NCBI GenBank assembly: GCA_965208575.1
Contig: CBDBOV010000003.1
Coordinates: 256,001-320,000, forward strand
DNA: 64,000 bases
From: Spirochaetia bacterium
GTDB taxonomy: Bacteria; Spirochaetota; Spirochaetia; SZUA-6; Bin103
Direction of reading: 5' to 3'
A model generated the notes under the pieces. The model did no database searches, was not told the origin of the DNA, and saw only the letters and a program-made list of their open reading frames with translations. This document shows positions 1 through 35,359 of the stretch, piece by piece; the stretch's first letter is position 1, and every line of letters begins with the position of its first letter. A program made the position numbers and the translations under genes.

Positions 1-75
1 CAGGCGTGAGCGTAGCCAGGGAGCGGCAAGTCGCTCCGCAATACGCTCAAAAAACAACGATCTATGGAGAAAACC

Positions 76-1902
76 ATGAATGGTATCGTAAGCGTGATGA
101 GGACCTTCGCGGTTGCGTTGGTCCTCATCCTGACCGCGACCGGCCTGTGGGCCGCTGGCGAAGAAGAGGCACCGGCAGCGGCGGCCGAGAAGGAAATGGT
201 GCTCGACCCGACCACCGGGGAGATGGTGGAGGCGCCACGATATGGCGGGACGATAACCGTTCTCAGTCATGATTGGGCTCCTGCCACTATGGACCCGTAT
301 TTTTCGGCCCCTCAGGCCCTTCAGTATCTCACCCAGGTTCTAGAGAAGCTGGCCATTGGCGACTGGGGAATAGACAGGGACGTATATGACTGGTCGGGCC
401 CCCCGGTCTTTCCTATGAGTGCCATGCGCGGGGCGCTGGCGGAAAGCTGGGAGATTTCCTCGGATAACCTCACTTATACCTTCAAGATCCGCCAGGGCGT
501 TCAGTTCCACGACAAGGCACCGGTGAACGGCCGGGAGATGACTGCCAAGGACGTAGAATACAGCTTTCAACGCATGTTGGGAAGTAAGCTGACAGGGACC
601 GAGTTCAGTGAAACCGAACCTTCCCCCCACATTGGTACTTGGAAGGCTAGACAGGTCGAATCGGTGACGGCGACGGACGAATGGACGGTTGTCATGAAGC
701 TGAAACAGCCAGACCCCATGGCGCTGAGGGATAGCATCGACACGACCGTGTTTTACATGATTCCAAGGGAGGTAATCGATACATACGGTGACATGAAGGA
801 TTGGCGGAACGCGGTCGGCACCGGACCCTTTGAGATGGCTGAGTATGTCGAGGGCAGCTCTATAACCTATACGAAGCATCCCAACTACTGGAGCTTCGAC
901 GAAAAATTCCCGGACAACCGCCTGCCCTATGTTGACGAGATGAGGTTCGTGTTCATGACCGAGCCAGCAACGAAAATTGCCGCGCTGCGCACGGCTAAGG
1001 TCGATATCCAGGGCAGTCTCACGTACGCGCTCAAAAACAAGGACGACATGGAGAGGCTGCAACGGACCAACCCTGACATCGTGATAACCGAGCATCCTAA
1101 TCGGTCGGACTACGGTATCGGCATGAACACGCAGAAGGCGCCATTTGATGACATCCAGGTACGCAAGGCAATGCAGATGGCACTGGACCGTGAGACACTT
1201 CACAATACCTACTTCAAGGGGTGGGGAAGCTGGACACCTCACTCATTGCTGGCCAACGATATGCCAGTAGTTGGCACCGCATTCGAAGAGTGGCCCGAAG
1301 AGCTCAAGAAGATCTATGACTACGACCCGACAGAGGCCGAGAGGCTCCTTGATGAGGCGGGGTATCCGCGCGGCGCCGACGGCATCAGGTTCAAGCTCAC
1401 AATGGGACATTGGGAAGGCGGCGATCTGGACTATGCACAATTGGTAGCCGTTACCTACTTTCGTGACATTGGCGTTGAGGTAGAAGTTGAGCCAGTGCCA
1501 GGTGCGGAGTGGGCAAGTTACATTAACGCTGCACAGTGGGACATGTTTGGTGGTATGACAATGGCGGCGAAGTATGGTAATCCCCTGGGTTTTTTGAGTC
1601 AGCTCGGGACGGGTGCTTCTGCGAACCGCTGCAATTGCGCCGATCCGGCTTATGACGCCATTTTGGAAGCCGCCGGAAATGCAACCACGGAAGAGGAGTT
1701 TTTGCTGCAGGTAAGAGAGCTGATTGAGCACATAAAAGAGCAGGTTTGGTTCGTCTCGGGCCCGCAAATCCCATTACTAGGCGTGCACCAACCGTGGGTC
1801 AAAGGTCTCAACAAGGAATTTTGGCTGGGAAGTAACAAGACAAATGCCATCGTCCCCCGCCTCTGGGTCGACCAGGAGTTGAAGGCAGCGATGGGTTTTT
1901 AG
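76..1902 (+). CDS. ABC transporter substrate-binding protein, family 5 (cassette U1)
   Basis: Signal peptide, P.YGG, GALAESW, GTGPF, DEAGYPRGADG motifs; GGAG RBS favours ATG at 76 over 64. Confidence 0.92.
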   Translation: MNGIVSVMRTFAVALVLILTATGLWAAGEEEAPAAAAEKEMVLDPTTGEMVEAPRYGGTITVLSHDWAPATMDPYFSAPQALQYLTQVLEKLAIGDWGIDRDVYDWSGPPVFPMSAMRGALAESWEISSDNLTYTFKIRQGVQFHDKAPVNGREMTAKDVEYSFQRMLGSKLTGTEFSETEPSPHIGTWKARQVESVTATDEWTVVMKLKQPDPMALRDSIDTTVFYMIPREVIDTYGDMKDWRNAVGTGPFEMAEYVEGSSITYTKHPNYWSFDEKFPDNRLPYVDEMRFVFMTEPATKIAALRTAKVDIQGSLTYALKNKDDMERLQRTNPDIVITEHPNRSDYGIGMNTQKAPFDDIQVRKAMQMALDRETLHNTYFKGWGSWTPHSLLANDMPVVGTAFEEWPEELKKIYDYDPTEAERLLDEAGYPRGADGIRFKLTMGHWEGGDLDYAQLVAVTYFRDIGVEVEVEPVPGAEWASYINAAQWDMFGGMTMAAKYGNPLGFLSQLGTGASANRCNCADPAYDAILEAAGNATTEEEFLLQVRELIEHIKEQVWFVSGPQIPLLGVHQPWVKGLNKEFWLGSNKTNAIVPRLWVDQELKAAMGF

Positions 1903-4347: not shown

Positions 4348-4869
4348 TTGACCCGCATTGCAGGTCCGTGCTAGGGTCGCACCGCAAAGTCATGCACGGC
4401 CCCTGTAGGCCCCCACAACAAGTCAAGTTAGCCCCCCCCCAGCTCTTCATATCCCGTAGATCGCTAACTGCTCGGGCTGGTCGCCCCGCGGGCGCCTTCG
4501 GCTTCAGCACTGGGGGTAGCGGCCGGCTCCGTGTACGTCGGCTCAGTCCACGTTCGTTCACTGACCAGCGCAACCGTCCTGGATCCCCGGTCCCCAACTC
4601 ACCGTCGCAAACGCAACGCCGTCAGGTATCTGGCTGGCCACCCTGTGGCCTGTGGCCCCGAAAAAAGCAGAAAGGAGGTGCACGCTGGTACTCGAGCAAC
4701 CACGCAACGCGCGCGGCCTGAGCCCATGAGCCCATGAGTGACGTGCCGCGCGCTGGACGATCCGAGATTGCCGTCGCTGCGCAGCCGCCCGCGTTGCGGG
4801 CGCGAAAGTGCGCAGGGAGTGGCGATTCGCTACAAATATACTCTCAAAACCCAACATACGGAGTTACGT
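4348..4869 (+). promoter_or_regulatory. Conserved cassette leader U2
   Basis: TTGACC-N18-TAGGGT 4348-4377; uORF1 4392-4721 with C9 at 4432-4440; AGGAGGTG 4673-4680 then CTG uORF2 4685-4729; hairpins to 4845; homologous to 9550-9940. Confidence 0.7.
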
Positions 4870-6690
4870 ATGAACATTGTAATGACTACAAAGACCTTCG
4901 CGGTTGCGTTGGTCCTCGCCCTGGTCGCCACCGGCGTCTCGGCGAGCCCGGCCGGGGAAGAGGAGCCGGCCGCGGCGATGGAGAAGGAGATGGTGATGGA
5001 CCCGTCCACCGGCAAGATGGTGACCGCACCCGAGTACGGCGGCACCCTCACCATCGCATCCAAGAACGAGCTCCTGGACCAGGATCCGTCGATCGGCGGA
5101 CACTGGGCCGGCTTTCAGATCATGGGGGTGAACGAGAAGCTGGCATACGTCAACTGGGCCACGCCGCGGGACGAGTACCCCTTGACCTTTTGGTACACGC
5201 CGCCCCAGCACCTCACCGGGTGGCTGGCAGAGAGCTGGTCGAATCCCGACCTGCAGACGCTCATCGTCAAGGTCCGGCAGGGCGTTCACTGGCACGACAA
5301 GCCGCCGATGAACGGACGCGAGCTGACCGCCGAAGACGTCGCCTGGACCTACCGCCGCATCGGTGGCCTCCTCGACTGGAAGCCGGAGTATACCTACGCC
5401 CTGCGCAACTTTCCGTGGGAATCCATCGAGGCCACCGACCGGTACACGGTCGAGTTCAAGCTGACCGAGCCGCGTCTGGACTTGCAGAACCAGGTGCTCA
5501 CCGAGGTCGGCGTCTGGATCCTGCCACCGGAGGTCATCGAGCAGCACGGCAACTACTCCGATTGGCGGAACGTGGTCGGCACCGGGCCGTTCATGCTGGC
5601 TGACTTCCAACCCGAGGTACGCAAGCAGTGGGTGCGCAATCCCGACTACTGGGGCTTCGACGAGAAGTACCCGGACAACCGGCTGCCCTACGTCGATGAG
5701 CTGGTGGCTCTCCATATGAAGGAAGAGGCGACCTACACTGCCGCGCTGCGCACCGGCCAGGTAGACATGCTTACTGTCGGCGGCGGCATCGCGCTGGCCA
5801 CCGTCGAAGCGGTGGATGCCATCCTGAAGACCAACCCCGACATGCAGGCAGTCCCGTTCTACAGTCGCGCACTGCAGGTGTCCGGCCTGAACATCCGCCG
5901 GCCGCCGTTCGACGACATCCGCGTGCGCAAGGCGATGAACATGGCGATCGACCGCGATGCCATCAACGAGAGCTACTACGGCGGGTATGCCTACCCGACG
6001 GTGCAGGGCTGGGTCGGCGCCGCGCTCGGCGAGATGCACACTCCGTTCGCGGAGCGGTCCGCGGATCTGCAGGCTGAGTACTCCTACCATCCGCAGGAGG
6101 CCGAGCGCTTGCTTGACGAGGCCGGCTACCCGCGCGGCGCGGACGGGGTGCGGTTCAAGGTCACCTACGACCACCGCGACGTGATCGACCTCGGATGGGT
6201 CGAGATCGTGGCCGGCTACTGGAAGGCGATCGGCGTAGAGGTGGAGATCACGGTGATGGACACCGGCGCCTGGGTCGATCGCCGCGCCCGCGGGCTCTAC
6301 GAGATGACGACCGGCGACTCCGGCTGGGATCTGAGTCCCGCGCACATCATGAGCTACTACGGCTACGTCCACAACTACCAGGGCGAAGGGCAGGCGAACC
6401 AGGCGGGCGAATACACCGGCGGGCTCAAGGACGCGACCATGAGTCGGCTCTACGAGGCGTTCCAGGCTGCGACCAGCCAAGAAGCGCGGATCCCGATCAT
6501 GCGAGAGTTCGACGATTACATCATGCGCCAGCACTTCCAGGTCTACGGCCACAAGGCGCCGGCGTTCCAGCTGGCCAACCCCTGGGTCAAGGGCTGGAAC
6601 GGCGAGACGTTCCTCACGGATATGAGCAACAACGAGATTCTGGTGCGGGTCTGGATCGACCAGGACCTGAAGGCGAAAATGGGCTTCTGA
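4870..6690 (+). CDS. ABC SBP family 5 (U2)
   Basis: Same motifs as U1; GGAG RBS before ATG 4870. Confidence 0.92.
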   Translation: MNIVMTTKTFAVALVLALVATGVSASPAGEEEPAAAMEKEMVMDPSTGKMVTAPEYGGTLTIASKNELLDQDPSIGGHWAGFQIMGVNEKLAYVNWATPRDEYPLTFWYTPPQHLTGWLAESWSNPDLQTLIVKVRQGVHWHDKPPMNGRELTAEDVAWTYRRIGGLLDWKPEYTYALRNFPWESIEATDRYTVEFKLTEPRLDLQNQVLTEVGVWILPPEVIEQHGNYSDWRNVVGTGPFMLADFQPEVRKQWVRNPDYWGFDEKYPDNRLPYVDELVALHMKEEATYTAALRTGQVDMLTVGGGIALATVEAVDAILKTNPDMQAVPFYSRALQVSGLNIRRPPFDDIRVRKAMNMAIDRDAINESYYGGYAYPTVQGWVGAALGEMHTPFAERSADLQAEYSYHPQEAERLLDEAGYPRGADGVRFKVTYDHRDVIDLGWVEIVAGYWKAIGVEVEITVMDTGAWVDRRARGLYEMTTGDSGWDLSPAHIMSYYGYVHNYQGEGQANQAGEYTGGLKDATMSRLYEAFQAATSQEARIPIMREFDDYIMRQHFQVYGHKAPAFQLANPWVKGWNGETFLTDMSNNEILVRVWIDQDLKAKMGF

Positions 6691-9425: not shown

Positions 9426-9964
9426 TTGACGGCTGTTGCAGAGCCGGCTATGGTGAACACGTTGGGATCGCGACCGATGCGCATGATGCATGACGACCCG
9501 AACCCGCGCAGCCACTGGTGGCCCTCGAAGCGGCCGGTGATACGTCTGTCCCCCCCCCCCCCCCCAGCGTTTTCGTACATCCGGTAGATCACTAACCGTA
9601 ACCGCTCGGGCTGGTCGCGCCGCGGGCGCTTTCGCCTTCAGCACCGGGGTAGCGGGCGGCTGCGCCGGGCGCCGGCTCAGTCCACGTTCGCTCACTCGTT
9701 CACTGACGCCCGCCACGGTCCTGGATCCCCCTTCCACTGGTCAATCACGTCATCACATCCACAACAACCCGGTATTCCCGGCGTACAGGAGGTGCAAAGT
9801 GGTACGCAAAGAACCGGACGCGCGCGCGGCGTAAGCCCCGTGAGTCACGCGCCGCGCGCCTGCGGAGTTGACTCTGTTCGAACGCCTGCGTTGCGGGCGC
9901 TGAGAGTACCGGAAGCGGCAATCGCTACCCGATACTCTCGAAATCTTTCTATCAGGAGTTGGTT
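9426..9964 (+). promoter_or_regulatory. Conserved cassette leader U3
   Basis: TTGACG-N17-TATGGT 9426-9454; uORF1 9477-9587 (36 aa) with C16 at 9550-9565; AGGAGGTG then GTG uORF2 9799-9834 MVRKEPDARAA; hairpins to 9939. Confidence 0.75.
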
Positions 9965-11218
9965 ATGAACCATATAGCAAAGACCTGCGCGGTTGCGCTG
10001 GTCCTGGGCCTTGTGCTGACCGCAACCGGCCTGTGGGCCACCGGCGGCACGGAGGAGCCGGCAGCCGCCGCCGAGAAGGAAATGGTGCTCGATCCCACCA
10101 CCGGCGAAATGGTGGAGGCCCCACGATATGGCGGGACATTGACCTACGCCGAACGGGTCGAGCCGCCGGGTACCGACCCCTGGAACCAGGGCCACGGACC
10201 AAGGGGCGTCGATGGCGTTGCAGAGAAACTGGGCATCGCGAACTGGGGAATAGATAGGGATGAATTTGGCTTCGAAAGCAGGTACGTCCCGCTATTTGCC
10301 ATGAGACCGAATCTGGCGGAAAGCTGGGAAAAGCCCGACCCGCTGACTATTATCTTCAAAATCCGCCCGGGCGTTCGCTGGCACGATAAGGCACCGATGA
10401 ACGGTCGGGAGCTAACTGCCCAAGATGTCGAATACAACTTTCACCGCTATACGGGTCTGGGCAGCGGCTTCACCGAACCTAGCCCCTTCGACCCGATGAA
10501 GGCCGCGACATGGGAATCGATTACGGCCACCGACGATTCCACGGTTGTTTTTAAGTTAAAGGCGCCACGCAACGACGCGCTGGAGACTATCATCAGCGGC
10601 TGGTTTCTTTTGATAATGCCCCCCGAGGTAATCGAGCAACATGGTGACGTTCAGGACTGGAGGAACCTGGTAGGCACCGGGCCCTATATGCTGACGGACT
10701 GGGTCAAGGGCAGCTCGATGACCTATACCAAGAATCCGGACTACTGGGGCACCGACGAAAAATACCCAGAGAACCGGTTGCCCTATATTGACCAGTTAAG
10801 ACGGGTGATTATGCCCGAACAAGCAACATTTCTGGCGGCACTGCGCTCGGGTAAGCATGATATCATAGGTATACCCGGCGACACTCAGTTGGGGGATATC
10901 GGCCAGGTAGAGGCCCTCAAACGGACCAACCCCGAGATCAGGTTGTACCCGTGGTATCTAAGGTCGGGCACCTCTGTTACTTTCAACCTGCGCAGGGAGT
11001 CGCTCTTTAACGACATCCGGGTACGCCAGGCCATGCAGATGGCCATTGACCTGGAGACAATGTGGTACATATGGGGTCCTAAACCTCCCTCGTTCAATGC
11101 ATCCCAGCCATGGATCAAAGGCTATAACGGTGAAGTCGAACTGGGACTGTCTCGCTCAGTTGCCATGTTGGCCCGCATCTGGATTGATAGTGATCTGAAG
11201 CAAGAGATGGGAGGCTAG
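9965..11218 (+). pseudogene. ABC SBP family 5 with in-frame internal deletion (U3)
   Basis: About 417 aa versus about 600; jumps from MAIDLET to WYIWGP near 11060, lacking the DEAGYPRG region. Confidence 0.8.
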
Positions 11219-12279: not shown

Positions 12280-12550
12280 GAACGGTCACTCCGTGCTCCG
12301 CAAGACCATGAACAGGGATGCGCAGACAGCACCCGCCGGTCAGCTTGTTCGGACCGGTGAATCCAGGCGGCGGGGCTGGCTGGCTGATTTCTTCACCAGG
12401 CTGTGGCAGGAGAAGCCCCTGGGCACCGCCTGCGGGATTCTCGTCGTGATCCTGGTTCTCGTCGCGATTCTTGCCGAGCGTCTACGCGCTCAACATGTTC
12501 GGCGACGCGGTGCGCGACCTGCTCGACCCACGCCTGCGAGGCGGCCAGGG
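12272..12550 (+). pseudogene. OppC with large internal deletion (U3)
   Basis: EKPLGTACG N-part joined near 12478, out of frame, to VYALNMFGDAVRDLLDPRLRGG. Confidence 0.85.
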
Positions 12551-12727
12551 AACCGCATGCGAGGCCTCCTGCGGCGTGGCGGTCACGCTGCTTCCGCATC
12601 GCCACGGGACTCGCGCGTTTGATCCCGGCAGCCCGAGCGCGACGGCACCCTGGCCGCTACCGAAGCGCGCGGACTGGCGTTCATCCCCTGGAGTCCCTGG
12701 AGCGCACCACCCCTGGCCGGAGGAGAG

Positions 12728-13069
12728 CTACGAGGTCGGACGCTCGACAATGAGGAGACTCTCGACAGCCGTGTCGAACTCCAATAGTCGATGCTCGTTC
12801 TCGGTGAGCAGTGCAACAAGCTCTCTCACCGTACAGTTCCCGACGCGCAGCCACACCACTTTGGGTGGTGCCCCGTGCAGGAAACTCAATTGTCGGAAGT
12901 CGCTGTCCTTGGAGACGATCGTGAAACCGTTCTGTCCCGCGTAATCGTAGATATGTGCATCGGGGGCATCGTCCAATCCAAGACCGATTACGTGTTCGGA
13001 ACCTGGAAACGTGACGGCCAACGTCTGAATGAGGCTTCGTGGGAGATTCTGGTCGAGAAGAAGCTTCAC
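12728..13069 (-). CDS. DUF5615 PIN-like toxin
   Basis: MKLLLDQNL, IVSKDSDF, PPKVVWLRVGN. Confidence 0.85.
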   Translation of the reverse strand: MKLLLDQNLPRSLIQTLAVTFPGSEHVIGLGLDDAPDAHIYDYAGQNGFTIVSKDSDFRQLSFLHGAPPKVVWLRVGNCTVRELVALLTENEHRLLEFDTAVESLLIVERPTS

Positions 13070-13293
13070 CCGTGACTGGAGGCCAACCTTCGTTCCCGGG
13101 CCGCGGCGAACTGTAGGACTGCCTGCACATCATCGCGGGTCAGCTCGGGGAACTCGCCGAGAAGCTCCTCCGTTGACATTCCTCCGGCCAAGTATTCGAG
13201 AACGTCGTAGACCGTGATGCGAGTCCCACGAATGCACGGCTTGCCCGAACGCCGGGCCGGATCAATGACTATGTGATCCAGGAAATCGTTCAT
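13066..13293 (-). CDS. DUF433 antitoxin
   Basis: GKPCIRGTRITV motif; 4-bp overlap with toxin. Confidence 0.88.
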   Translation of the reverse strand: MNDFLDHIVIDPARRSGKPCIRGTRITVYDVLEYLAGGMSTEELLGEFPELTRDDVQAVLQFAAARERRLASSHG

Positions 13294-13489
13294 GGCATCT
13301 CAGGATAGCCGAGTTGCCGATTGGTGAACACGGCCGCATTACGGCCGCATCGTGGGCCATTACGACGACTCGAGTCGAGCCGCCGCCCCGGACGGCAAAC
13401 CCGGCAGGTCGTTGCCGCGGCCTGCGAGCGGCGGTACGCCGGCGTCACGCGCTGGATCGAGGACATGCCGCTCGGTCGGGTGCTGGGGT

Positions 13490-13630
13490 GCGGTAACCAC
13501 TGTAGGTGCATCGTCCGGCGTCATCCTCACCACGGCGGCGCTGGCCCGGCTCAGGGTCAAGAAGGGCGACACGCTCTACCTGATCGGCGGCGCCGGCCGC
13601 CTGGGCGCGCAAGACACCCGGTCCGTTTGA
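13490..13630 (+). pseudogene. AbrB/MazE antitoxin fragment fused to an oppC tail
   Basis: VTTVGASSGVIL..LARLRVKKGDTLYL joined at 13580 to LIGGAGRLGAQDTRSV*, matching 49731-49781. Confidence 0.75.
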
Positions 13631-13737
13631 TCTCGTTGTTCCGGGACGAGGAGCATTGGCTTCGGCGAGGTAGACCATTTCGATGGTGTGCGATTGTCAC
13701 CCTTGCAAGCGTCGCATGAGCGCTGTATATTCGTCAT

Positions 13738-14229
13738 ATGGCGCGCGCATCCTCTAAACGGTCCGCGATTCTGCAAGCATATGCTGACCCGGCCGAGATG
13801 CCGGCGAGCGAAGCCACGCGCGTCGCGATGCTCCTGGCTATCGACGAGCCGGACATACGGAGTGACGTACAGCTCGCGCGGCTGGTCGCCGGCGGTTTGC
13901 TTCCGGCATCGGCCGTCGCCCTGGCCGAGGTGCTTGGGCAGCATCGGGTGGTTGGACCGGTAGTCCCCGAAGCAACGCTCCGGCGAGTGCGCAGAGGCAG
14001 GAAAGTGCTGTCCAGACAGCATAGCGAACGACTCTATGAACTGGGACGCGTCGTCGATGCAGTCAGCCGCGCGTACCACGGAGACCGGGACGCAATCGAA
14101 GCGTTCCTGAGCCGTCCACACCCATTGCTCGAAGGCGAGACGCCGTTCGACATGGTGCGCTCCAGCTCGGCAGGTGTGGAAGCGGTCCTGAATCTCATTC
14201 GTCGGGCGGAGGCCGGCGTGGCTGTTTGA
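13738..14229 (+). CDS. Xre/MbcA/ParS-type antitoxin
   Basis: SERL, FLSRPHPLLEGETP, EAGVAV C-terminus. Confidence 0.85.
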   Translation: MARASSKRSAILQAYADPAEMPASEATRVAMLLAIDEPDIRSDVQLARLVAGGLLPASAVALAEVLGQHRVVGPVVPEATLRRVRRGRKVLSRQHSERLYELGRVVDAVSRAYHGDRDAIEAFLSRPHPLLEGETPFDMVRSSSAGVEAVLNLIRRAEAGVAV

Positions 14230-14717
14230 CGAAACCGCGAACGCTCCCGCGGACGATGCGTGCCTTTCGGATCGGCGATCCTGCTGGCCGGTTGCCGGTG
14301 TGGAGCACGGCAGGCGCCAGACGCGTGTCCGGCCGGTGGCACGAGGCCGGCGCCGAAGTAATCTACGCCTCCGAATCCTATTCGACAGCCATGTTGGAGA
14401 CGCTCGCCCATTGGAACGGAGCGCCGCCGCCGAACCAGCACTACGTCGAGATCACGATACCTACGGGCACCAGCTATGAGGTGGTAACGGCCGATCTCGT
14501 TCGCGATTGGTCCCATCCGGACGGAGAGGCGGCCCGCCGCTTCGGTCGCGCGTGGTATGCCGACATCCGAAGTACACTCCTGATCGTCCCGTCGGTCGTG
14601 GCACGTATGGAGCGCAACATGGTCATCAACACGCGGCATGCAGATTTCGATCGCTTGACGGTCGGTCTGGAAACCCCCGTCTGGTGGGACAAGCGCCTCT
14701 TTCGCGACTCCGACTGA
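14226..14717 (+). CDS. RES-domain toxin
   Basis: GARRVSGRW, IYASES, LIVPSVV..ERN.VIN..H. Confidence 0.88.
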   Translation: MTKPRTLPRTMRAFRIGDPAGRLPVWSTAGARRVSGRWHEAGAEVIYASESYSTAMLETLAHWNGAPPPNQHYVEITIPTGTSYEVVTADLVRDWSHPDGEAARRFGRAWYADIRSTLLIVPSVVARMERNMVINTRHADFDRLTVGLETPVWWDKRLFRDSD

Positions 14718-14825
14718 CCGCGTAGCTGCCGGACGAGCTCCTCTTGGACTGGTTGCGGGGTTGCGGTGGGCCGAGCTGGAGGGAGCCTCGGAACACCTGG
14801 TCGATAATGCGAAGGAAGGAACCAG

Positions 14826-15755
14826 TTGAAGTTGCGGAAGTTGCCGGAAGCCGAGCAAGCGAGACGTCACTGGCTGGTCGATCTTTCGGTCAGACTCATC
14901 AAGACCAAGGCGCTCGGAACCGGATGCGGGATCATCGTGCTGGCCCTGATCCTGGTGAGCATTTTCGCGGATGTTCTGGCTCCCTATCCGTACGATGAGA
15001 TTCGACTGCAGGAGATACTGCAGCCGCCATCGGCACAGCACCTGCTGGGCACCGATCACGTGGGACGCGACTACCTGAGCCGCATCATCCAGGGGGCTCG
15101 GGTCTCGATGCTGGTCGGCCTGGCCGCGACCACCATCAATGTGGTGGTCGCCATCCTGGTGGGTGGCACCACCGGCTTCCTGGGTGGCAAGTTGGATCTG
15201 GTGGTCCAGAGATTCGTGGATGCGTGGATCGCCTTCCGGGCCTGCTCCTGCTGCTCACCCTCATGTCGGTCGCGGGTCGCGGGGTGCTGCAGATGATACT
15301 GGTCCTCGGAATCTCGGGCGGCATCGGGAGCGGCTCACGGGTCGTCAGAAGTGCTGTTATCGGGATCAAGGAGAACGTCTATTTCGAGGCGGGGGAGGCG
15401 ATCGGGGCCTCGAAGTGGCGTGCGCTCACCCGCCACGTCTTACCCAACATCGCGCCGCCCATCATCATCATCTTCAGCATCAGCATCGGCGGCTACATCC
15501 TGAGCGCGGCATCACTGAGCTTCCTCGGCTTCGGCCTGCCGCCCGACATCCCCGACTGGGGCGGGATGCTGAGCCGCGAGGGGCGCCAGTACATGGAGGC
15601 GGACCCGCGGCTGGCGCTCTGGCCGGGCCTGAGCCTGACGCTGGTCGTATACAGCTTGAACATGTTCGGCGACGCGCTGCGCGACCTGCTCGACCCGCGG
15701 CTCAGGGGCGGTGGTGGTGATCTCGGCGCCGGAGCCGCCGGGTCCTGTTCGATAG
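14826..15755 (+). pseudogene. Orphan oppC with 1-bp frameshift (U4)
   Basis: GCCTTCCGGGCC near 15235 lacks one C relative to AFPG in paralogues; no SBP or oppB upstream. Confidence 0.85.
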
Positions 15756-15795
15756 AGCCGGTGGTACGGTCGCTTCGACCGTGTTACAGTGTGTC

Positions 15796-16200
15796 ATGGC
15801 CGCGCGCTACCGGGACTGGCTTCGGCAGGCGGACGCTGATCTCCGGCACGCTCGCCAGTCGTGCGACCATGGCGCGCACGAGTGGGCCTGTTTTGCCGCC
15901 CAGCAGGCGGCCGAAAAGGCACTCAAGGCGGTCATCCTGAGCCGAGGAGCGGATGCCTGGGGTCATACGGTTACCGCTCTGCTCGGTGTGGTGGCGACCG
16001 CGGCGCAGGCCGGGGAGGACCTGATTACGTGCGCCAAGAGCCTCGACAAGCACTACATCCCCACCCGCTACCCGAACGGCTTCGACACCGGCGCGCCGGT
16101 CGACTTCTACACGAAGAAGGACTCTGACGATGCCATCCTCTGTGCCGAGCGGCTCACCAGCTTCGCTCGTGGTCAAGTCGAACAACCAGAGGACCGTTGA
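15796..16200 (+). CDS. HEPN domain protein
   Basis: WACFAAQQAAEKALKA, GHTV, YIPTRYP. Confidence 0.88.
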   Translation: MAARYRDWLRQADADLRHARQSCDHGAHEWACFAAQQAAEKALKAVILSRGADAWGHTVTALLGVVATAAQAGEDLITCAKSLDKHYIPTRYPNGFDTGAPVDFYTKKDSDDAILCAERLTSFARGQVEQPEDR

Positions 16201-18535: not shown

Positions 18536-19439
18536 GTCACAGCTTGTTGAGCGTCCGCAGCAAAACCCGGCGCACGGGCATCAAAAAACAACGTCTACTC
18601 CCCTTTCTCGGAGCTTGGAGATATGGACTTCCTTCGATGTCTCGCTCAAGGGGTTGCCGGACAAACTGACAGTGTCCCCCTCAGAGAGCCCGCGGTTCTC
18701 GACCAGTGGTGAGATGTCGACTATCTGGTTGAACATGAGGTCGAGCTGAGTGAGATTAGTCAGGGAAGCTAGCGGCGAGAGGTCACTTATCTGATTCTGC
18801 TCAAGGCTGAGCGAGGTGATGCTGGTGAGGGAAGCTAGCGGTGAGACGTCGCTTATCTGGTTCTGCTCGAGACTAAGCGCGGTTAAGTTGGTCAGCGGAG
18901 CCAGTACGGAAGCCAGTAGTGAGAGGTCGCTTAGCTCGTTCCCCGTAAGGTCGAGCTGGGTGAGATTAGTCAGGGAAGCTAGCGGTGTAATGTCGCTTAT
19001 CTGGTTCAATGCAAGGTCGAGCTCAGTGAGGTTAGTCAGAGAAGCCAGTGGTGATATGTCGCTTATCCGGTTCTTCCTAAGGCCGAGATTGGTGAGATTA
19101 GTCAGGGTAGCTAGTGGCGAGATGTCGCTTATCCGGTTGTCGTAAAGGCTGAGCGAGGTGAAGTTGGCGAGCGAAGCCAGTGGTGAGAGGTCGCTTATCT
19201 GTCCATAGTGGAAAACCAGCTCGGTAAGGTTGGTCAAATACTCCAATCCGGCGAGGTCGGTGATCTTGACTCTCGCATATCCCCTGCCTGATTCACGAAG
19301 CGAGGTGATGGTTTCCAGCTCCGAAACATGGATCGGACCTTGATGCTTCTGGATAGCTGCTCTTATGACTCTCTCAAGAGCTATCCCACCGGCCCCTGGG
19401 CCGGCGCAGTCATGAAAGAAACAAGGGTGAGCTATAGTG

Positions 19440-19645
19440 TGGGCAGAGTTCTGGGTGGAGCGCGAAAGTAGGCCGGCGCGTCACTGGCGTTACGTTCTGC
19501 GAACCCGTTCAAGAGCTTGGCCCCGGGGCGGGTGGCGTAGTCATTGGTGAGGTTGTCAGCCGGCGCGGCCGGGTGGCGATCATCCCGTTCAGGAGAATAC
19601 CTGCTACACACGCCTTGGCCGCACCACTCAGTCGTAGCGGAGGTT
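19440..19645 (+). ncRNA. Putative IS110 bridge RNA
   Basis: Non-coding left end holds TCAAGAGC (matches target) and TCAGGAG (matches donor end); boundaries approximate. Confidence 0.6.
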
Positions 19646-19647
19646 TC

Positions 19648-21036
19648 ATGGCACGACGCAGACACAGACGCAAGGGCAAGGGCAGTCGCACAGCGCAACC
19701 AAAGGTGATGCACCCGGACGCTGCCGGCTTGGACATAGGCGCTACCGAGGTGTACGCGGCTGTGCGCCCGGAGCGCGACCCGGACCCGATCCGGAACTTT
19801 GCTACGTTCACCGCGGACCTGCACGCCTTGGCCGACTGGCTCAAGGAATGCGAGGTCACCACGGTGGCGATGGAGTCCACCGGTGTGTACTGGATTCCGG
19901 TGTATCAGATCCTGGAGGCACACGGCTTCGACGTGGTGCTGGTGAATGCGCGTCACGTGCACTCGGTACCCGGTCGGAAGTCCGACGTGGCCGACTGCGA
20001 GTGGTTGCGCTACCTGCACTCGGTGGGATTGCTGCGCGGCTCATTCCGCCCTGCCGACGAGGTGTGTGCACTGCGCTCGGTGCTGCGCCATCGCGACACC
20101 TTGATCAAGATGGCGTCGCGCAGCGTGTTGCACATGCAGAAGGCGTACAGCCAGATGAACGTGCATCTGCACCATGCCATCTCTGACCTGACGGGGACGA
20201 CCGGTCTGGCCATTACGGACGCTATCCTGGCGGGTGAGCGGGATCCGGCGCGGTTGGCCGCTCTGGCCGACCGGCGGATCAAAGCCAGCCGCGAGACCTT
20301 GATCAAGGCGCTGCAGGGCGACTGGCGCGCCGAGCACCTGTTGGCGTTGCGGCACGCGCGAGCGACCTATGCCCACTACCAACAACTCATCACGGAGTGC
20401 GATCAGGAAATCGAAGCCGGCATCCGCGCGTTCGAAGCCAGCAGCGAGCCACCCGGCGCGGTGGGCGACGACCCACCGGATGAGGGAATCGATGCGGAGC
20501 CCGAGGCGCCAACCGAGTCACCGGCCAAGCGGTTCGACCTGCGCGGCCACCTTACGCACCTGTTCGGCACTGACCTGACGCTGATTCCCGGCATCGGCGA
20601 AAGTACGGCGCTGGTTCTGTTCACCGAACTCGGCCCGGAACTGTCCCGCTTTCCGACCGCACCGCAATTCGCCTCCTGGCTGCACCTGTGCCCCCACAAC
20701 CAGATCACCGGCGGCAAGATCATCAGCTCGCACACCGGTCGGGGCACCAATCGGGCCGCCCAGGCGCTGCACTGGGCGACCCAGTCGTTGTACCGCAGCC
20801 CATCGGCCCTGGGCCAGCACTTCCGCCGCATGCGGGCGCGTCTGGGTACTCCCGAAGCGACCACTGCAGTCGCGCATAAACTGGCTCGGATCATCTACCA
20901 TCTGATCACGCATCGCGTGGCCTACGATGACAGCATCCTCGCCGCCGAGGAGCGCCAGGACCGGCGCCGCTTTGAACGCCGGCTCCGAAGGCAGGCACAC
21001 GCACTCGGTTATGAGCTTGTCCCGGAGGCCGCCTGA
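19648..21036 (+). CDS. IS110 recombinase/transposase
   Basis: GLDIG, MESTGVYW, RKSDVAD, IPGIG; GGAGG RBS before ATG 19648. Confidence 0.92.
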   Translation: MARRRHRRKGKGSRTAQPKVMHPDAAGLDIGATEVYAAVRPERDPDPIRNFATFTADLHALADWLKECEVTTVAMESTGVYWIPVYQILEAHGFDVVLVNARHVHSVPGRKSDVADCEWLRYLHSVGLLRGSFRPADEVCALRSVLRHRDTLIKMASRSVLHMQKAYSQMNVHLHHAISDLTGTTGLAITDAILAGERDPARLAALADRRIKASRETLIKALQGDWRAEHLLALRHARATYAHYQQLITECDQEIEAGIRAFEASSEPPGAVGDDPPDEGIDAEPEAPTESPAKRFDLRGHLTHLFGTDLTLIPGIGESTALVLFTELGPELSRFPTAPQFASWLHLCPHNQITGGKIISSHTGRGTNRAAQALHWATQSLYRSPSALGQHFRRMRARLGTPEATTAVAHKLARIIYHLITHRVAYDDSILAAEERQDRRRFERRLRRQAHALGYELVPEAA

Positions 21037-21382: not shown

Positions 21383-23200
21383 CTAACGACCCATGGCGTT
21401 CTTCAGCTCACTATCGATCCAGATCCGGGCTTGGACGGTATTACGTTCACCCCATCCCATTCCTGCTTCACCGAAGAAACCCTCGACCCACGGCTGGCTC
21501 ACGGAAAACCGAGGGGACTTGGATTTGACCAGGCCCCAGTGCTCCCTCACCGTGATCTCATCGGCCTGTCTCAAAAGACTCTTATACTCCTCCAAGTCGG
21601 TAGTTTCTTGGGAGGCAAGATACAGGGCGTCCATACGCGGGTCCTTCGCTTTGTCGTAGCTCCAGCCAAAGTTTTGGCTAATCCCCTTCATGGGGTTCCA
21701 AAAGGTGACGCTGCTGCCGCCATTGTATCCCCCTTGCACTAGCGCCCACTCGTGCGTGTCCGCGCTATTGTCAGCGTTATGCTCAGCGATAGTCTGCGGA
21801 ACAAGCTCGCCTTCAACGCCAATGGCGTCGAAGTACCCCATGATGAGTTCTGCATAGTCTGTGGTGTACCTCTCAAAGGCCCTTACCTTGAGCTTGAATC
21901 TATAGCCGTCGGCGCCGCGCGGATACCCGGCCTCATCAAGGAGCTCCTCGGCCCTTTCGGGGTTATAGGTATATTCTTGCTTGACCTCCTCGGGCCACTC
22001 TTCATATGGCCAGGCCCACCCTTCTTCAAGATCTTGTCTCATTAACCCGGCAGGAGCTGGATCTCCATAACCCTTAAAGAAGCTGGCGGAATTCGCCTCG
22101 CGGTCCACTGACATCTGCAGTGCCTTGCGCACAATGGGGTTGTCAGTGGGCGGCAACGCCCAGTTAAAAACGAAAGCGCCGGCCGGTGGCCCAAGAAAGG
22201 GCCACACCTCGATTTCAGGGTTGGTCCGCTCGAGGGTCTCCAGATCGTCGACATTGTATATCCAAGAGTCGCCGAAGTTACCCATCACATCAATTTTGCC
22301 CGTGCGGAATGCCGCCAGACGTGCTGACATCTCTGTCATCATCAGGGACCTTAACTCGTCAATATAGGGTAGCCGGTTCTCCGGGAATTTTTCGTCGTAG
22401 CCCCAGTAGTTAGGATTCTTCTCCCAGGTTACAGAGCTGCCGTCCACGTACTCAGTCAGTCTCCAGGGCCCGGTGCCGACCAGGTTCCTCCAGTCTTTGG
22501 CGTCTCCGTATTTCTCGATTACCTCGGGAGCGTACGCAACCCAGTAGGGGTTGAGCAGTTTCCCCGGCACATCGAGGGTAGGCTCCGTCAGCTTCATAAC
22601 TACCGTCCATTTGTCGGTGGCCGTTACCGATTCGAGACCTACACCCCAGGTGGTAGCAAATGTATGGGCGCTAGGTCCGGCTTCGGTGAAGTCGCCCAGA
22701 CCGAAATAGCGGTGATAGTTGTATTCGACGTCATAGGCATCGAACTCCCGACCGTTCACCGGCTCCTTATCGTCCCAGTAAACGCCCTTGCGGATGTTCC
22801 AGATGAACGTTGTGTCGTCGGGCATCGACCAGCTTTCAGCCAGAGCCCCTGTAGTCATCTCTGGGGTCACAGTGACGTAGTCTCTACCGTTCCATATGTC
22901 CCTGGATAGTGCCCAGTTGGCGAAGGCCAGCCTCTCATTAACACCACCGACAAAGTGATGCGCCCAGCCACTGACCCACCAATGGTCAGCATTCTCAGGA
23001 TACGCCGTAGCGGCCCACGTGAGTGTGCCGCCGTACTCCGGCGCGGTCCACGTCATGCCGGTGGCGGGGTCGAACACCGTCTCTTTGTCGGCAGCGGCTG
23101 CCGGCTCCCCTTCGCTGGCCGCGCCGGCCCAGAGGCCGGTTGCGGGCAGAACGAGGACCAACGCAACCGCGAAGATCCTCGTCGTTTGTACAATAAGCAT
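21383..23200 (-). CDS. ABC SBP family 5 (U5)
   Basis: Same motifs; GGAG RBS. Confidence 0.92.
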   Translation of the reverse strand: MLIVQTTRIFAVALVLVLPATGLWAGAASEGEPAAAADKETVFDPATGMTWTAPEYGGTLTWAATAYPENADHWWVSGWAHHFVGGVNERLAFANWALSRDIWNGRDYVTVTPEMTTGALAESWSMPDDTTFIWNIRKGVYWDDKEPVNGREFDAYDVEYNYHRYFGLGDFTEAGPSAHTFATTWGVGLESVTATDKWTVVMKLTEPTLDVPGKLLNPYWVAYAPEVIEKYGDAKDWRNLVGTGPWRLTEYVDGSSVTWEKNPNYWGYDEKFPENRLPYIDELRSLMMTEMSARLAAFRTGKIDVMGNFGDSWIYNVDDLETLERTNPEIEVWPFLGPPAGAFVFNWALPPTDNPIVRKALQMSVDREANSASFFKGYGDPAPAGLMRQDLEEGWAWPYEEWPEEVKQEYTYNPERAEELLDEAGYPRGADGYRFKLKVRAFERYTTDYAELIMGYFDAIGVEGELVPQTIAEHNADNSADTHEWALVQGGYNGGSSVTFWNPMKGISQNFGWSYDKAKDPRMDALYLASQETTDLEEYKSLLRQADEITVREHWGLVKSKSPRFSVSQPWVEGFFGEAGMGWGERNTVQARIWIDSELKNAMGR

Positions 23201-24187
23201 ACGTAACTCCGTATCTTGATTTTTGAGAGTATTGCGGAGCGGATTGCCCTCCCTGGCTACTCTCGGGCCCGCAACGCGGACGGCCAGTCCGAGTCAAGCT
23301 CCTGAGGCGCGCGGCGTGTGACTCACCGGGTTCGCCCGGGCTCACGCCGCGCGCGCGTGCGGTTCTTTGAGTATCATTTGCACCTCCTGGTGCGCCGGCA
23401 AAAACCGGCAAGGTTGTTGTAGCGACCCGCGGCGGCGCCGAGTCATGCATCGTCGCTCGCAAGGGTGGGGAGCTGCCGCAGGCGGCGCGGCTATGGTGAA
23501 CCCTACACGGGCACGCAGGCGGAAACGCCGGACACAGCCAAGGGAGCACCTACGGTCACGCCGGCCGGTAGCGCCCGGGCCGCGGAGCGGGTGGAGGGAA
23601 GGGGCCTGGCCAAAGGGAATCCGCGCCAGCAAAACGCGTCCCGGACACCGTGCCGGATGGGCGTGCGCAGTGCGCCGGAGCGGATACGTCAAGCAGCGCG
23701 ATCCCTTATAGCGCCATGGCACAGGCGTGCCCCTTCCTTTTGTATGGGTGCCGGCAACGCCCTCTGGTGTGGACTGGTGGAGGTTGCGGCCGACGGGGTC
23801 GGCCGTTGGACTCACGGATGTGCGGCGGGTGTGCGCCACACCGATTGATGGTGCCGCAGCCAGCACCGGCGCCGCGCACTGGGCTGCTGCGCGGTTGGCC
23901 GGGCGGCTCCTAGTAGCGCTCGGCTGTCGCGCGGTTAGCTGAGCGGCTAACGGTAGTCGGGTAGACTGCTGCCGGGGGGGGGGGCGGGTAAACGCGCCGG
24001 CCGCTTTGGGGCTAACGAGTTGCTGCGCGGGTAGGGGTCGTCGGGCATCATGCGCATCGGTCGCGAATCCATGGCCGTCAATGATAGCCGACGTCGCAAG
24101 CGCCGGCCGTCAGGCACATGTGGTAGCATCCGCATCGGTCAGGCTCCCAAGGTTGGTCAGCATAGCCGACGCGGCAACAACCGTCAA
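23201..24187 (-). promoter_or_regulatory. Conserved cassette leader U5
   Basis: TTGACG-N17-TATGCT 24187-24159; uORF1 24057-23947 (36 aa) with C11 at 23974-23984; AGGAGGTG then ATG uORF2 23377-23342 MILKEPHARAA; hairpins to 23225. Confidence 0.75.
23505..23700 (+). other. Possible group II intron remnant inside the U5 leader
   Basis: GGCGGAAACGCCGGACACAGCCAAGG and GCGGAGCGGGTGGAGGGAAGGGG..GGGAAT blocks, then SRTPCR..SAPERIRQAAR; resembles recalled intron and RT-start patterns; absent from other leaders. Confidence 0.5.
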
Positions 24188-29332: not shown

Positions 29333-31132
29333 CTAATGCCCCATTTCTGCCTTTAGCTCACTGTCAATCCAGAGGCGCGAGAAGATGGGTAGAGTGTTTA
29401 AGAATGAAAGCCAGACTTCACCGTTATAACCGATGACCCACGGCTGGTGCGCCTGGTACGTTCCAGGCATGGGACCCCATATATACCAGTGGTTCTCCAC
29501 GGTGTACATATCCACTTCTTTGACCAGCCTCTGCCGTTCCTCTTCGGAAGTAGCGGTTCGGGCGGCGTCGAGAAGGGCATCCAACTCAGGGTACCTGGTT
29601 CCGTGTGTATTTCCAAAGCTGCTCGAGTGTACCCATTCGCGTGTAATATCCAACGGAGCGGTATGGTTGCCCAGAGGCATAGTAAACAGACCTTCCCAAG
29701 TACGATCCCTTTGAGCAGCGATACGACTCGCTTCATCCAATACGTCAATCTCTACATCAACGCCAATCTCCTCCCAGTAGGTGGCAGCCAGTTCACTATA
29801 GCCTAAATGAAACTTCTCTGAATGGTTCAACGTGGTCTTGAATCGAGTGCCGTCGGCGCCGCGCGGATATCCGGCTTCATCAAGCAGAGCTTCGGCTCCT
29901 GCCCGATCGTACCGATAGCCCTTCTTGACCTCTTCGGGCCACTCGTCGAAGGGGGTAGAATACCCGCTGATACCACTCCCTACTATACCCTGAGGCTGCC
30001 AGGCTGAAGTGCCCTTGTAGAAGCTGCGGTCGATGCCCTCGAGGTCCAGTGCCAACTGCATGGCCATGCGCACCCTGATGTCGTCAAAGGGCGGCTTGCT
30101 CGCGTCCATGTTAAAAGACGTTTCCGAACGGTTAAACCACGGCTCCAGCACGATTTCAGGGTTAGTCTTCCGGAGGCTATCAAGCACGTCGACCGACGTG
30201 ATATTAGTAGGGAAACCCACGAAATCAATCTTACCGGCGCGCAGTCCCGCCAAACGTGTTGCTTCCTCTTTGATGAAAAGGCCCTGCAACTTGTCAATGT
30301 AGGGCAGACGATTCCCCGGGTACTTCTCGTCGTCTTTCCAGTAGTCAGGATCCTTGGTATGGGTTATTGAGCTGCCCTCCACCCAGTCAGTCAGCATATA
30401 CGGCCCGGTACCGACCAGGTTTCTCCAATCCTTAACGTCGCCATATTGCTTGACGACCTCGGGGGGGTATATCAAGGCGTGGGACGACCCGCCAGCGAAT
30501 AGTACAAGGATAGCCGTATTTGGCTCGGTCAGCTTAACAACAACCGTATATTTGTCGGGCGCCGTTATCGATTCGGCAGATGGCCGCGCGTACGTAAAGG
30601 GGCTAGGTCCGGCTTCGGCGAAGTCATTCATACCCAACATGCGCTGAAAGCTATGGACGACATCATCAGCGGTAAATTCTCTCCCATTCATCGGTGCTTT
30701 GTTTTGCCACTTAATACCTTTGCGGATGTTGAAGATAATAGTCAGTGGGTCGGGAGTGTCCCAGCTCTCAGCCAGATGCGACGTATAGGCAAATTCAGGT
30801 TGGTAATGGGTTCTGAAGGAAAATACGTCCCTATCTATTGCCCAGTTCAGGAGTCCCAGCGTCTCTACAACGCCACCAGCGGCCAGTGCTGGGAGATGGA
30901 AGAAAAAGGAGTCAGCATTGTCTGGCTCGAGCATCGCGCCATAGGTCAATGTCCCGCCGTACTGGGGCGCGACCACCACCTTGCCGGTGGTGGGGTCGGT
31001 CACATACTTCTTGTCGGCGGCGGCTGCCGAGTCGCCACCGTCGCTCGAGCCAGCGGCCCACAGGCCGGTTGCGGTCAGGATGAGGCCACACAGCACTGCG
31101 AGCCCCGTCTTAAATAGAATTGTCTGTCTCAT
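29333..31132 (-). CDS. ABC SBP family 5 (U6)
   Basis: Close paralogue of U7/U8 SBPs. Confidence 0.92.
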   Translation of the reverse strand: MRQTILFKTGLAVLCGLILTATGLWAAGSSDGGDSAAAADKKYVTDPTTGKVVVAPQYGGTLTYGAMLEPDNADSFFFHLPALAAGGVVETLGLLNWAIDRDVFSFRTHYQPEFAYTSHLAESWDTPDPLTIIFNIRKGIKWQNKAPMNGREFTADDVVHSFQRMLGMNDFAEAGPSPFTYARPSAESITAPDKYTVVVKLTEPNTAILVLFAGGSSHALIYPPEVVKQYGDVKDWRNLVGTGPYMLTDWVEGSSITHTKDPDYWKDDEKYPGNRLPYIDKLQGLFIKEEATRLAGLRAGKIDFVGFPTNITSVDVLDSLRKTNPEIVLEPWFNRSETSFNMDASKPPFDDIRVRMAMQLALDLEGIDRSFYKGTSAWQPQGIVGSGISGYSTPFDEWPEEVKKGYRYDRAGAEALLDEAGYPRGADGTRFKTTLNHSEKFHLGYSELAATYWEEIGVDVEIDVLDEASRIAAQRDRTWEGLFTMPLGNHTAPLDITREWVHSSSFGNTHGTRYPELDALLDAARTATSEEERQRLVKEVDMYTVENHWYIWGPMPGTYQAHQPWVIGYNGEVWLSFLNTLPIFSRLWIDSELKAEMGH

Positions 31133-31665
31133 AGAGATCGACCTCCGACAAATATTGTTTGAGAGCAGTCATTCCACTGCCGGCCCCTCGCCTGCTCCAT
31201 TCGAGCGAGGGCGACACCCCTTAGCGGTGCAGCCGCCCGGTCTTTCGTTAGTCTCTTGTCGCGTGCCTCCTTTGGCGCGCCGCGCCGAAAGGCAGCCATG
31301 CGCGCCGCCGCGCGTGGTGGCGGTGCTGCACGTCACCCATCTGCTTCTTGCTGCCGGCAAAGTCGCTACGCATGTTGATGTGGACTGGTGGAGTCGGCCG
31401 ACGTCGGCCGTTGGAGGCACGGATGCGTGGCGGGTGTGTGCCACGCGGATGGCTGGTGCCGCGCTCAGCACCGGCGCCGAGCGGCTGGCTGTCGCGCGGT
31501 CGGGTAGTCGGGTAGTCGGTAGTCGGGTAGTCGGTAGTCGGTAGTCGGTAGTCGGTAGTCGGTAGTCGGTAGTCGGTAGTCGGTAGTCGGTAGTCGGTGG
31601 CTGGGCTGGATGCTGTCGGTGCCCATTTGCGGACGAGTGTAGAGGCCGGCCCAAATCCGTGTCAA
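31133..31665 (-). promoter_or_regulatory. Divergent cassette leader U6
   Basis: TTGACA-N18-TACACT 31665-31636; uORF 31626-31465 spans the heptamer array; 31380-31500 homologous to 23770-23935; AAGGAGG kept but no clear uORF2. Confidence 0.65.
31502..31597. repeat. Heptamer tandem repeat (GGTAGTC) x13
   Basis: 13 TAGTC cores, a few units 8 bp. Confidence 0.97.
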
Positions 31666-33345: not shown

Positions 33346-33672
33346 TCTGGCTCACGGATATACGGGCGTCAGAGACGCTCAGAAGTCATTTGCCGAGCCG
33401 GGTGATGCCGCCCACGCCGCGAGCGGCGCGCAGGTTGCTGCGGAGCGCACGGAGCGAGGCGCCCCGGACAACTGCACCGAGGTGCGTTGCCCGGGGCAGG
33501 GTCATGACAATTCCCCACCGCCGGGACGGGGTAGGCGACGAGGTTGCGACACCGGAGCCGTCGGGATCGAACGGGGCGGAGGAGATGCTGTACCCCGCTG
33601 ACGGACGGAGGGCGTAGCCCGACCGGAGTCAGCCGGCGCGGTGCCGTGGAGGCCACCGTGGACGACGCCGAG

Positions 33673-35217: not shown

Positions 35218-35359
35218 ATTGCATGGTTATGCATAGACACGGGGGTATCCAGACACCACCTCGTGTCGTGGAGGGGCCTTACAGCGCGGCTGAGGCGACG
35301 TTTTCTCATCGCTGACCGCCCATTCTCCGATTATCGACCGTCAGACCCGCCTGAGAGGG

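Follow-up and report, generated by a model that had tools for sequence, protein, structure and literature searches.

Leader-peptide attenuators, including the Escherichia coli tna operon (TnaC with Rho) and pyrBI/pyrE, use a ribosome at the end of a short leader open reading frame (ORF) to control what follows, and very short stalling peptides encoded in upstream ORFs (uORFs) are known from the MAGDIS hexapeptide of S-adenosylmethionine decarboxylase (AdoMetDC) and from the cat/cmlA and erm leader peptides. Messages can also be stabilized from their 5' ends, as by STAB-SD of Bacillus thuringiensis cryIIIA and by the ompA 5' stem-loops. To place a related element among these systems, we analyzed a stretch of 64,000 nucleotides (the window) from a Spirochaetia bacterium (GTDB lineage Spirochaetota; Spirochaetia; SZUA-6; Bin103), covering positions 256,001 to 320,000 of the forward strand of contig CBDBOV010000003.1 (assembly GCA_965208575.1). 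A first-pass annotation of the window had pointed to a hairpin, here termed P3, just upstream of the ribosome-binding site (RBS) of solute-binding protein (SBP) genes, and had proposed it as a riboswitch-like candidate. This hairpin is one helix of a ∼200-nt structured RNA leader in front of SBP_bac_5 genes, so that the annotated element is a real RNA module but not the whole, being the 3' part of a longer leader with a mini-ORF. The leader is very probably a functional RNA structure of the sense strand, and our tentative reading, to which we give slightly less than an even chance, is that of an mRNA leader with two modules that regulates in cis and is coupled to a leader peptide.

In the conserved block shared by the copies, the 5' end of the leader is formed by AGGAGGTG, a gap of 5 to 9 nt, and the NTG start codon of the mini-ORF. 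The last four mini-ORF codons together with the stop codon make up the 5' arm of P1, a 12-bp G+C helix on top of which an optional apical hairpin (P1b) may sit. A linker carrying TTGACTC and CTGGC joins P1 to hairpin P2 (CGCCCGC-GTT-GCGGGCG), followed by P3, which is composed of an outer 7-bp stem, an internal loop (GCCAG/GCAA), an inner 6- to 7-bp stem, and a CAAN loop. The 3' end consists of an A-rich spacer, a Shine-Dalgarno (SD) sequence, and the ATG of the SBP_bac_5 gene. The strong upstream SD, the mini-ORF, and P1 constitute module A, while P2 and P3 constitute module B; the two modules are small (∼90 and ∼110 nt) and separable. The window begins within the leader of the first unit (U1), of which only the last 81 nt lie inside. 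The copies in the window, with the P3 arms read from the sequence, are as follows.

1 to 6, + strand: U1, end of the 3' arm of P2 (model match at window positions 1 to 81, equal to model positions 124 to 201, with the 5' part cut; the full copy was read from the genome)
8 to 48, + strand: U1, P3 with arms GAGCGTA..TACGCTC (outer stem 8-14/42-48; internal loop GCCAG 15-19 and GCAA 38-41; inner stem 20-25/32-37; loop 26-31)
49 to 78, + strand: U1, A-rich spacer, SD (GGAG, 66-69), and SBP_bac_5 start codon (76-78)
4669 to 4872, + strand: U2, whole leader, divergent (132.3 bits); SD 4673-4678; mini-ORF 4685-4729 with CTG start
4709 to 4872, + strand: U2, P1 4709-4753; P2 4786-4802; weak P3, a degenerate copy, 4804-4845; ATG 4870-4872
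9787 to 9834, + strand: U3, module A; SD AGGAGG 9787-9792; mini-ORF 9799-9834 (V-V-R-K-E-P-D-A-R-A-A, TAA stop)
9822 to 9859, + strand: U3, P1, with the mini-ORF stop at its 5' arm
9883 to 9939, + strand: U3, module B; P2 9883-9899; P3 9902-9939 with arms GAGAGTA..TACTCTC; SBP ATG 9965-9967 (leader, 142.7 bits)
23198 to 23393, − strand: U5, whole leader, near consensus (208.2 bits); SD 23383-23388; mini-ORF 23342-23377 (MILKEPHARAA, TGA stop)
23198 to 23354, − strand: U5, P1 23307-23354; P2 23266-23282; P3 23225-23264 with arms GAGAGTA..TACTCTC; SBP ATG 23198-23200
39769 to 39976, + strand: U7, whole leader (116.1 bits); SD 39773-39778; mini-ORF 39785-39829 with TTG start and 14 codons
39809 to 39976, + strand: U7, P1 39809-39853; P2 39886-39902; P3 39904-39944 with arms GAGAGT..ACTCTC; ATG 39974-39976
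45856 to 46063, + strand: U8, whole leader, 6087 bp downstream of U7 and 100% identical to it over the 196 bases compared; P3 45991-46031 with arms GAGAGT..ACTCTC

Compared with the described systems, this leader resembles the leader-peptide attenuators in that a conserved short ORF with its own SD and start codon lies within the 5' leader, the peptide is under selection, and the stop codon sits at a strong hairpin, which a terminating ribosome must therefore occupy. Unlike them, it has neither a U-tract terminator nor a regulatory codon run, its peptide has only 6 to 14 residues, its hairpin is separated from the gene by a second structured module, and 60 to at least 100 copies are present per genome. 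The stalling uORF peptides are likewise very short and conserved, and in 12 of the 122 copies with a parsed mini-ORF the stop directly follows K-E-P, whereas the genes here encode nutrient-binding proteins rather than resistance or polyamine functions, and stalling at this leader is hypothetical. As in the 5' stabilizers, a strong SD-like site is found at a long distance 5' of the actual RBS, stable 5' hairpins are present, and the genes are expected to be highly expressed, but in contrast to STAB-SD, the upstream SD is followed by a well-spaced start codon and an ORF with coding-type conservation. Pseudoknotted riboswitch aptamers share with module B a compact conserved fold directly 5' of the RBS, conserved loops, and a possible H-type pseudoknot; module B differs from them in its near-invariant stems, in matching none of 4,227 Rfam models, and in that no ligand or switching platform was found for it.

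The arm sequences named in the first-pass annotation were all located in U1, U3, U5, U7, and U8. In U1, an A-U pair of U3 and U5 is replaced by C-G, and since both sides of this one pair have changed, the exchange is indeed compensatory. The inner GGAGCG/CGCTCC hairpin is present within P3, and P2 precedes P3 with the G-U-tolerant variants that had been noticed, C-G having become U-G at one position in 25 and at another in 29 of 76 copies. The fold energies of P3 were compared with those of 200 shuffles per copy. The P3 of U1 folds at −23.4 kcal/mol (z = −4.44) and that of U3 is similarly distinct (z = −4.70), with none of the 200 shuffles as good in either case, followed by U5 (z = −3.51; 1 of 200). 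These three copies fold far below their shuffles; U7 (z = −1.87; 8 of 200) does not, and the degenerate hairpin of U2 (z = −0.40; 63 of 200) is no better than chance.

The earlier suggestion of a selected RNA structure is strengthened by the pairing, which is kept in 136 distinct copies from several genomes. In a structure-blind MAFFT alignment (A1) of 76 distinct copies, 51 from the genome itself and 25 from relatives, the helices P1, P1b, P2, and P3 and a 4-bp RBS hairpin were taken together and compared with 500 shuffles. Pairing was found in 89.2% of cells, against 27 to 61% when the 3' partners were slid, and 18 pairs had changed on both sides, against 8.6 ± 1.7 in the shuffles, none of which reached 18. 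For P3 alone, 90.9% of cells pair (37 to 62% when slid), 7 of the 14 pairs had changed on both sides (2.7 ± 1.3 expected; 2 of 500 shuffles), and 14 both-side-changed cells were counted (3.5 ± 1.7 expected; 0 of 500 shuffles). Similar values were obtained from model-fitted alignments, which lean towards the model, with 89.8% pairing and 23 both-side pairs (11.8 in shuffles) among 84 distinct copies from relatives, and 89.6% and 22 (11.2 in shuffles) among 52 distinct own copies. Moreover, G-U cells outnumbered A-C cells over P1 to P3 by 130 to 50, although these cells are not independent of one another, and the excess was found in P2 (63 to 7), the inner stem of P3 (34 to 15), and P1 (21 to 11). 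Such an excess fits an RNA of the sense strand and not a DNA palindrome. An all-against-all covariation scan was swamped by subfamily signal and yielded nothing usable.

Besides these helices, the CUGGC that immediately precedes P2 could base pair with GCCAG in the internal loop of P3, and the resulting 5-bp helix would form an H-type pseudoknot with the P3 outer stem. The complementarity is suggestive, with 90.1%, 95.9%, and 88.6% of cells paired on alignments A1, A2, and A3, respectively. Both-side changes are found in few cells, for example, CCGGC with GCCGG, and CUGCGC with GCGCAG in U2; the both-side pair count was reached by 19 of 500 (A1), 5 of 500 (A2), and 27 of 500 (A3) shuffles, and G-U cells are not preferred (11 versus 14). 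A further helix, GAGUCA/UGACUC (PKa), pairs in 90.2% of cells and is unproven: both strands are near-invariant, its both-side pair count was reached in 112 of 500 shuffles, and A-C cells (19) exceed G-U cells (5). Two other candidate pairings were rejected. A long-range helix (P0) joining the linker to the start region of the mini-ORF is not a general feature (56.8% of cells paired; matched by 308 of 500 shuffles), and for pairing of the P3 5' arm with a look-alike UACUC of the mini-ORF, the variant copies do not covary as judged by eye only.

The mini-ORF, which the first-pass annotation did not mention, is the strongest functional signal of the leader. It was parsed in 122 of the 136 distinct copies, with the consensus peptide M-I-L-K-E-P-H-A-R-A-A and a TGA stop. 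An NTG start codon is present in 109 of the 122 (ATG in 83, GTG in 14, TTG in 7, and CTG in 5; other codons in 13) and lies 5 to 9 nt 3' of the SD in most copies. The variation among copies is concentrated at third codon positions: codon 3 is CTC in 93, CTG in 16, and CTT and CTA in 1 each (CGC in 8 and 3 others), codon 4 is AAA in 109 and AAG in 10 (3 nonsynonymous), codon 5 is GAA in 97, GAG in 23, and GAC in 2, and codon 6 is CCG in 96, CCT in 9, CCA in 8, CCC in 8, and CTG in 1. Over codons 4 to 6 (K-E-P), this amounts to 58 synonymous versus 6 nonsynonymous variants, and the peptide core M-[I/V]-L-K-E-P is under selection; such conservation of the amino acid sequence beyond nucleotide need is also that of ribosome arrest peptides. 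Considering that third-position periodicity indicates coding selection rather than an RNA or promoter motif, the mini-ORF is probably translated. From codon 7 onward, the sequence doubles as the P1 arm, and peptide and pairing constraints are therefore inseparable there. The mini-ORF has 11 codons in 86 copies, 6 in the 12 that stop straight after K-E-P, and 14 in 10, ending with TGA in 101 copies, and in every length class the stop lies no more than ∼12 nt from the P1 5' arm. Given the size of the ribosome footprint, a terminating ribosome would cover this arm.

To describe the association of the leader with its genes, we searched the 6.5-Mb genome with four leaders by blastn and with an nhmmer profile, and each search found 63 leader places. 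An SBP paralogue lies directly 3' of 60 of these, 56 of which are single full-length matches, while the remaining three copies are truncated or are followed by other sequence. With ∼131 SBP-like places in the genome, roughly half of them thus carry the leader, and the leader-headed SBPs are mostly 40 to 47% identical to the U5 protein. A dispersed repeat (REP or MITE-like) was considered and discarded, as 60 of the 63 copies face the same way and lie at a constant distance upstream of members of a single gene family. Five relatives of the same genus were searched with a full-leader covariance model (R1; 201 positions, 42 pairs), with 150 candidates scored per genome, giving 49 matches in G001, 34 in G003, 101 in G005, 38 in G006, and 6 in G007. 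Within the order, 10 of 92 genomes had an R1 match at an E value of ≤0.01, and full-length matches came solely from the genome itself and from 7 of the 10 other genomes of the genus; two further order-level matches are 48-nt GC hairpins (E values of 0.006 and 0.008), and the R1 search revealed no credible leader in the other 81 genomes of the order. Two genomes of the genus, G009 and G010 (single contigs, 95% complete), had no leader match. The leader tracks the SBP gene expansion: G005 (4.9 Mb), rich in leaders, had at least 151 SBP tblastn matches, while the leader-free G009 and G010 had 7 each (G011 had 1). The SBP homologues examined in G009 and G010 have ordinary short upstream regions, and no ancestral form of the leader was seen at SBP homologues in the leader-free genomes of the genus.

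Beyond the order, a pattern scan of 185,579 species genomes yielded 21 stretches, 19 of which were from one 7.0-Mb Spirochaetia metagenome-assembled genome. The other two lie on contigs of 4.0 and 6.5 kb in bins titled Acidobacteriota and Tectimicrobiota, which are probably mis-binned pieces of the leader-bearing genus. These two contigs carry one complete and one near-complete leader, at L171 2821-3022 (− strand) and L175 6336-6531 (− strand). No Rfam 15 family (4,227 models) reached its gathering score anywhere in the window, the riboswitch models proposed for comparison in the first-pass annotation included, and in E-value mode the leaders of U7, U5, and L009 had only chance-level matches (E values of 4 to 9). 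Likewise, no published description of the leader motif was found among titles and the openings of abstracts. Just upstream of the L009 leader, a partial group II intron domain (RF02005; 24.1 bits, E value of 3.6e-5, cut by the stretch end) is located at 1685-1720 (+ strand).

The modularity of the leader is visible in natural "deletion mutants." Copies C4:396189 and C6:43917 (G000:C4:396168-396478 and G000:C6:43764-44068) have lost module A and carry a promoter-like site (TTGACN-16/17-NANNNT) from which transcription would start just before CUGGC-P2, while the sister copies C6:140778 and C6:963905 (G000:C6:140752-141016 and C6:963868-964129) retain module A and P2 without P3. Promoter-like sites were also detected 25 to 110 nt 5' of the mini-ORF SD in several full copies. 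The conserved block has a sharp 5' edge common to nearly all copies, and the median identity over 250 random pairs of 57 own copies was 0.62 for the 200 nt upstream, 0.75 for the leader, 0.77 for bases 1 to 90 of the coding sequence (CDS), and 0.69 for bases 91 to 690. When U5 was compared with its 94%-identical ortholog in G005 (L153), homology started exactly at the leader 5' edge (23388, − strand), with unrelated DNA upstream. In this one pair, with small numbers, identity was high in P3 (39/40), P1 (46/48), and P2 (16/17), lower in the linker (18/24) and spacer (13/25), and 568/605 at third codon positions. It seems that the leader-plus-gene cassette is the unit that relocates.

Taken together with the position of the mini-ORF stop in or next to the P1 5' arm, where a ribosome that finishes or pauses must hold P1 open, these features can be tentatively combined into a cis-acting, posttranscriptional control common to all leader-bearing paralogues. 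We infer each effect on expression in what follows. Ribosome occupancy of the mini-ORF, in a manner dependent on the peptide sequence, would set whether P1 forms, and P1 formation would in turn set whether the transcript continues or is kept, with P1 acting as an elongation barrier or as a gate for Rho or nucleases. Module B would then be the structured 5' body of the mature message, leaving the RBS open and giving each paralogue the same stability and translation setting, possibly via a shared bound factor. A bolder version, which is a long shot, adds a second sensor. In it, a very short regulatory nascent peptide (M-I-L-K-E-P) would work together with P2-P3 as the pseudoknotted aptamer of a novel class of riboswitch, so that a single metabolite or translation signal switches 60 to more than 100 SBP genes (a few percent of the genome), and the unit would have enabled the family expansion in a sponge-associated genus. 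If functional, the leader would be an undescribed RNA family matching nothing in Rfam 15 and would govern a single-family gene expansion that ranks among the largest seen in bacterial genomes. It would also provide a compact test case for the joint working of a very short leader peptide and a structured RNA, as well as for the coordination of nutrient uptake in uncultured sponge-associated bacteria; because the modules are small and separable, the leader of this uncultured organism is open to experiments in a surrogate host.

Several observations weigh against regulation by this two-module leader. The stems are near-invariant, with most P3 positions at least 90% invariant in A1, and the copies are related by descent, which means that few events underlie the covariation; part of the conservation could stem from concerted evolution, and the leader is no more conserved than the first 90 nt of the CDS. 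In the outer stem of P3 alone, G-U cells equal A-C cells (12 each). The peptide MILKEPHARAA contains no regulatory codon run, a strict consensus promoter scan around U3 and U5 found none, and a terminator scan found no U-tract terminator on the sense strand of the U3 and U5 leaders, P1 being a strong hairpin at the mini-ORF stop without a U run after it. When a ribosome is placed on the mini-ORF stop, the computed folds of P2, P3, and the RBS hairpin do not change, and thus no switch is predicted, by thermodynamic prediction only. Nor is the RBS unusually closed, with a median opening energy of 6.6 kcal/mol versus 10.2 kcal/mol in 150 control sites, which are crude starts with uncertain true start codons. 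The RBS hairpin (P4) was accordingly rejected as a start-codon lock, being paired in only 68 to 71% of cells, in a register that varies by subfamily and at an RBS more open than the controls. Weak support for the two-module reading comes from contigs of four metatranscriptome libraries of three studies, which cover the U5 gene together with its leader, with DNA carry-over possible; these are assemblies, in which the very deep leader coverage is a pile-up of paralogues and the start, end, and strand are unreadable.

Among the alternatives, it is unlikely that module B, with P2, P3, and the pseudoknot, is the aptamer of a new small-molecule riboswitch through which one global or host-derived metabolite sets SBP translation or stability. 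What speaks for the riboswitch-like character assigned in the first-pass annotation is a conserved structured domain with covariation 5' of related genes: the loops and junction bases are conserved, the two-tier hairpin immediately precedes the RBS, CUGGC and GCCAG remain complementary in 88.6 to 95.9% of cells, including a few compensatory cases, module B can form a 5' untranslated region by itself, and 60 to at least 100 target messages per cell would be easier to serve for a metabolite than for a protein. However, no Rfam class matches, neither an alternative pairing nor an RBS-hiding platform was found in the predicted folds, the stems are almost invariant, unlike most riboswitch stems, and the pseudoknot lacks a G-U preference (11 versus 14) and stands out from shuffles only at 19/500 and 27/500. 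In addition, the SBPs are only ∼45% identical, and one shared transported ligand is therefore unlikely. A similarly low probability is given to module B as the site of a shared RNA-binding protein acting as a regulon-wide regulator of translation or stability. The stem sequences are conserved beyond the needs of pairing, GGA-containing motifs are conserved in P3 and at the SD, and the same element precedes 60 of the ∼131 SBP-like places, yet no candidate protein was found, so high a number of sites would titrate a regulator, and CsrA (PF02599) was detected in none of the five genus genomes by a search with three positives (E. coli, B. subtilis, and T. maritima) among 14 control genomes.

The leader might instead be nonregulatory, a constitutive 5' stabilizer and translation enhancer in which the message is protected by the ribosome-bound SD and mini-ORF together with the hairpins, and SBP output is high owing to an open, A-rich RBS. 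We regard this, too, as an explanation with a small chance: SBPs typically reach very high abundance, the RBS is less closed than the control sites, and in the two copies with a promoter-like site before P2, stable hairpins stand close to or at the putative 5' end, but mere ribosome loading needs no selection on M-[I/V]-L-K-E-P, and protection needs neither conserved loops nor a possible pseudoknot. Very improbable is a mostly historical conservation, in which a leader with little function of its own was copied with the gene and homogenized by gene conversion. This would agree with the conservation of the CDS 5' part (0.77 versus 0.75 for the leader), with a genome rich in transposases and rearrangements, and with ortholog-pair homology that begins exactly at the leader edge; it is opposed by pairing kept through both-side changes and G-U, by the third-position periodicity of the mini-ORF, by the same sharp 5' edge in nearly all copies, and by the 94%-identical ortholog pair, in which the stems are 94 to 98% identical compared with 75% for the linker and 52% for the spacer. 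Least credible of all is a role of the inverted repeats at the DNA level, where they would be the operator of a dimeric transcription factor or a promoter element. The P3 arms do form a 7-bp inverted repeat, and TGAGTCA/TGACTC is another conserved inverted pair without G-U preference (5 versus 19); against this, G-U exceeds A-C in P2 (63 to 7) and in the P3 inner stem (34 to 15), the leader sits between promoter-like sites and the RBS, and scans of U3 and U5 found no consensus promoter inside the leader.

Some neighboring features of the leader copies were also recorded. U7 and U8 are a 6,087-bp tandem duplication of the whole SBP-permease-permease unit, with upstream regions that differ by a C/G homopolymer run. 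The SBP gene of U6 (29333-31132) is preceded by another leader at 31133-31400 (− strand), with different hairpins and without an evident mini-ORF, the 3' end of which resembles that of the leader described here (CTCTCAAAC, an A/T-rich spacer, and GGAGG). The binding-protein ORF of U3 (9959-11218) encodes only 419 amino acids, its Pfam match ending at profile position 234 of 368, and the second permease of this unit is in pieces (12471-15940); broken genes look common in the window. Transposase genes are dense, with IS110 type, Transposase_29, rve, DDE_Tnp_1, and Mu-like rve with an AAA helper, in the regions 19573-21036, 33544-38640, and 53005-55433. Eukaryote-like repeat proteins are represented by a leucine-rich-repeat ORF made of 66-nt tandem units (18581-19246, − strand) and by a HEAT-repeat/PhyH protein at 60552-61892.

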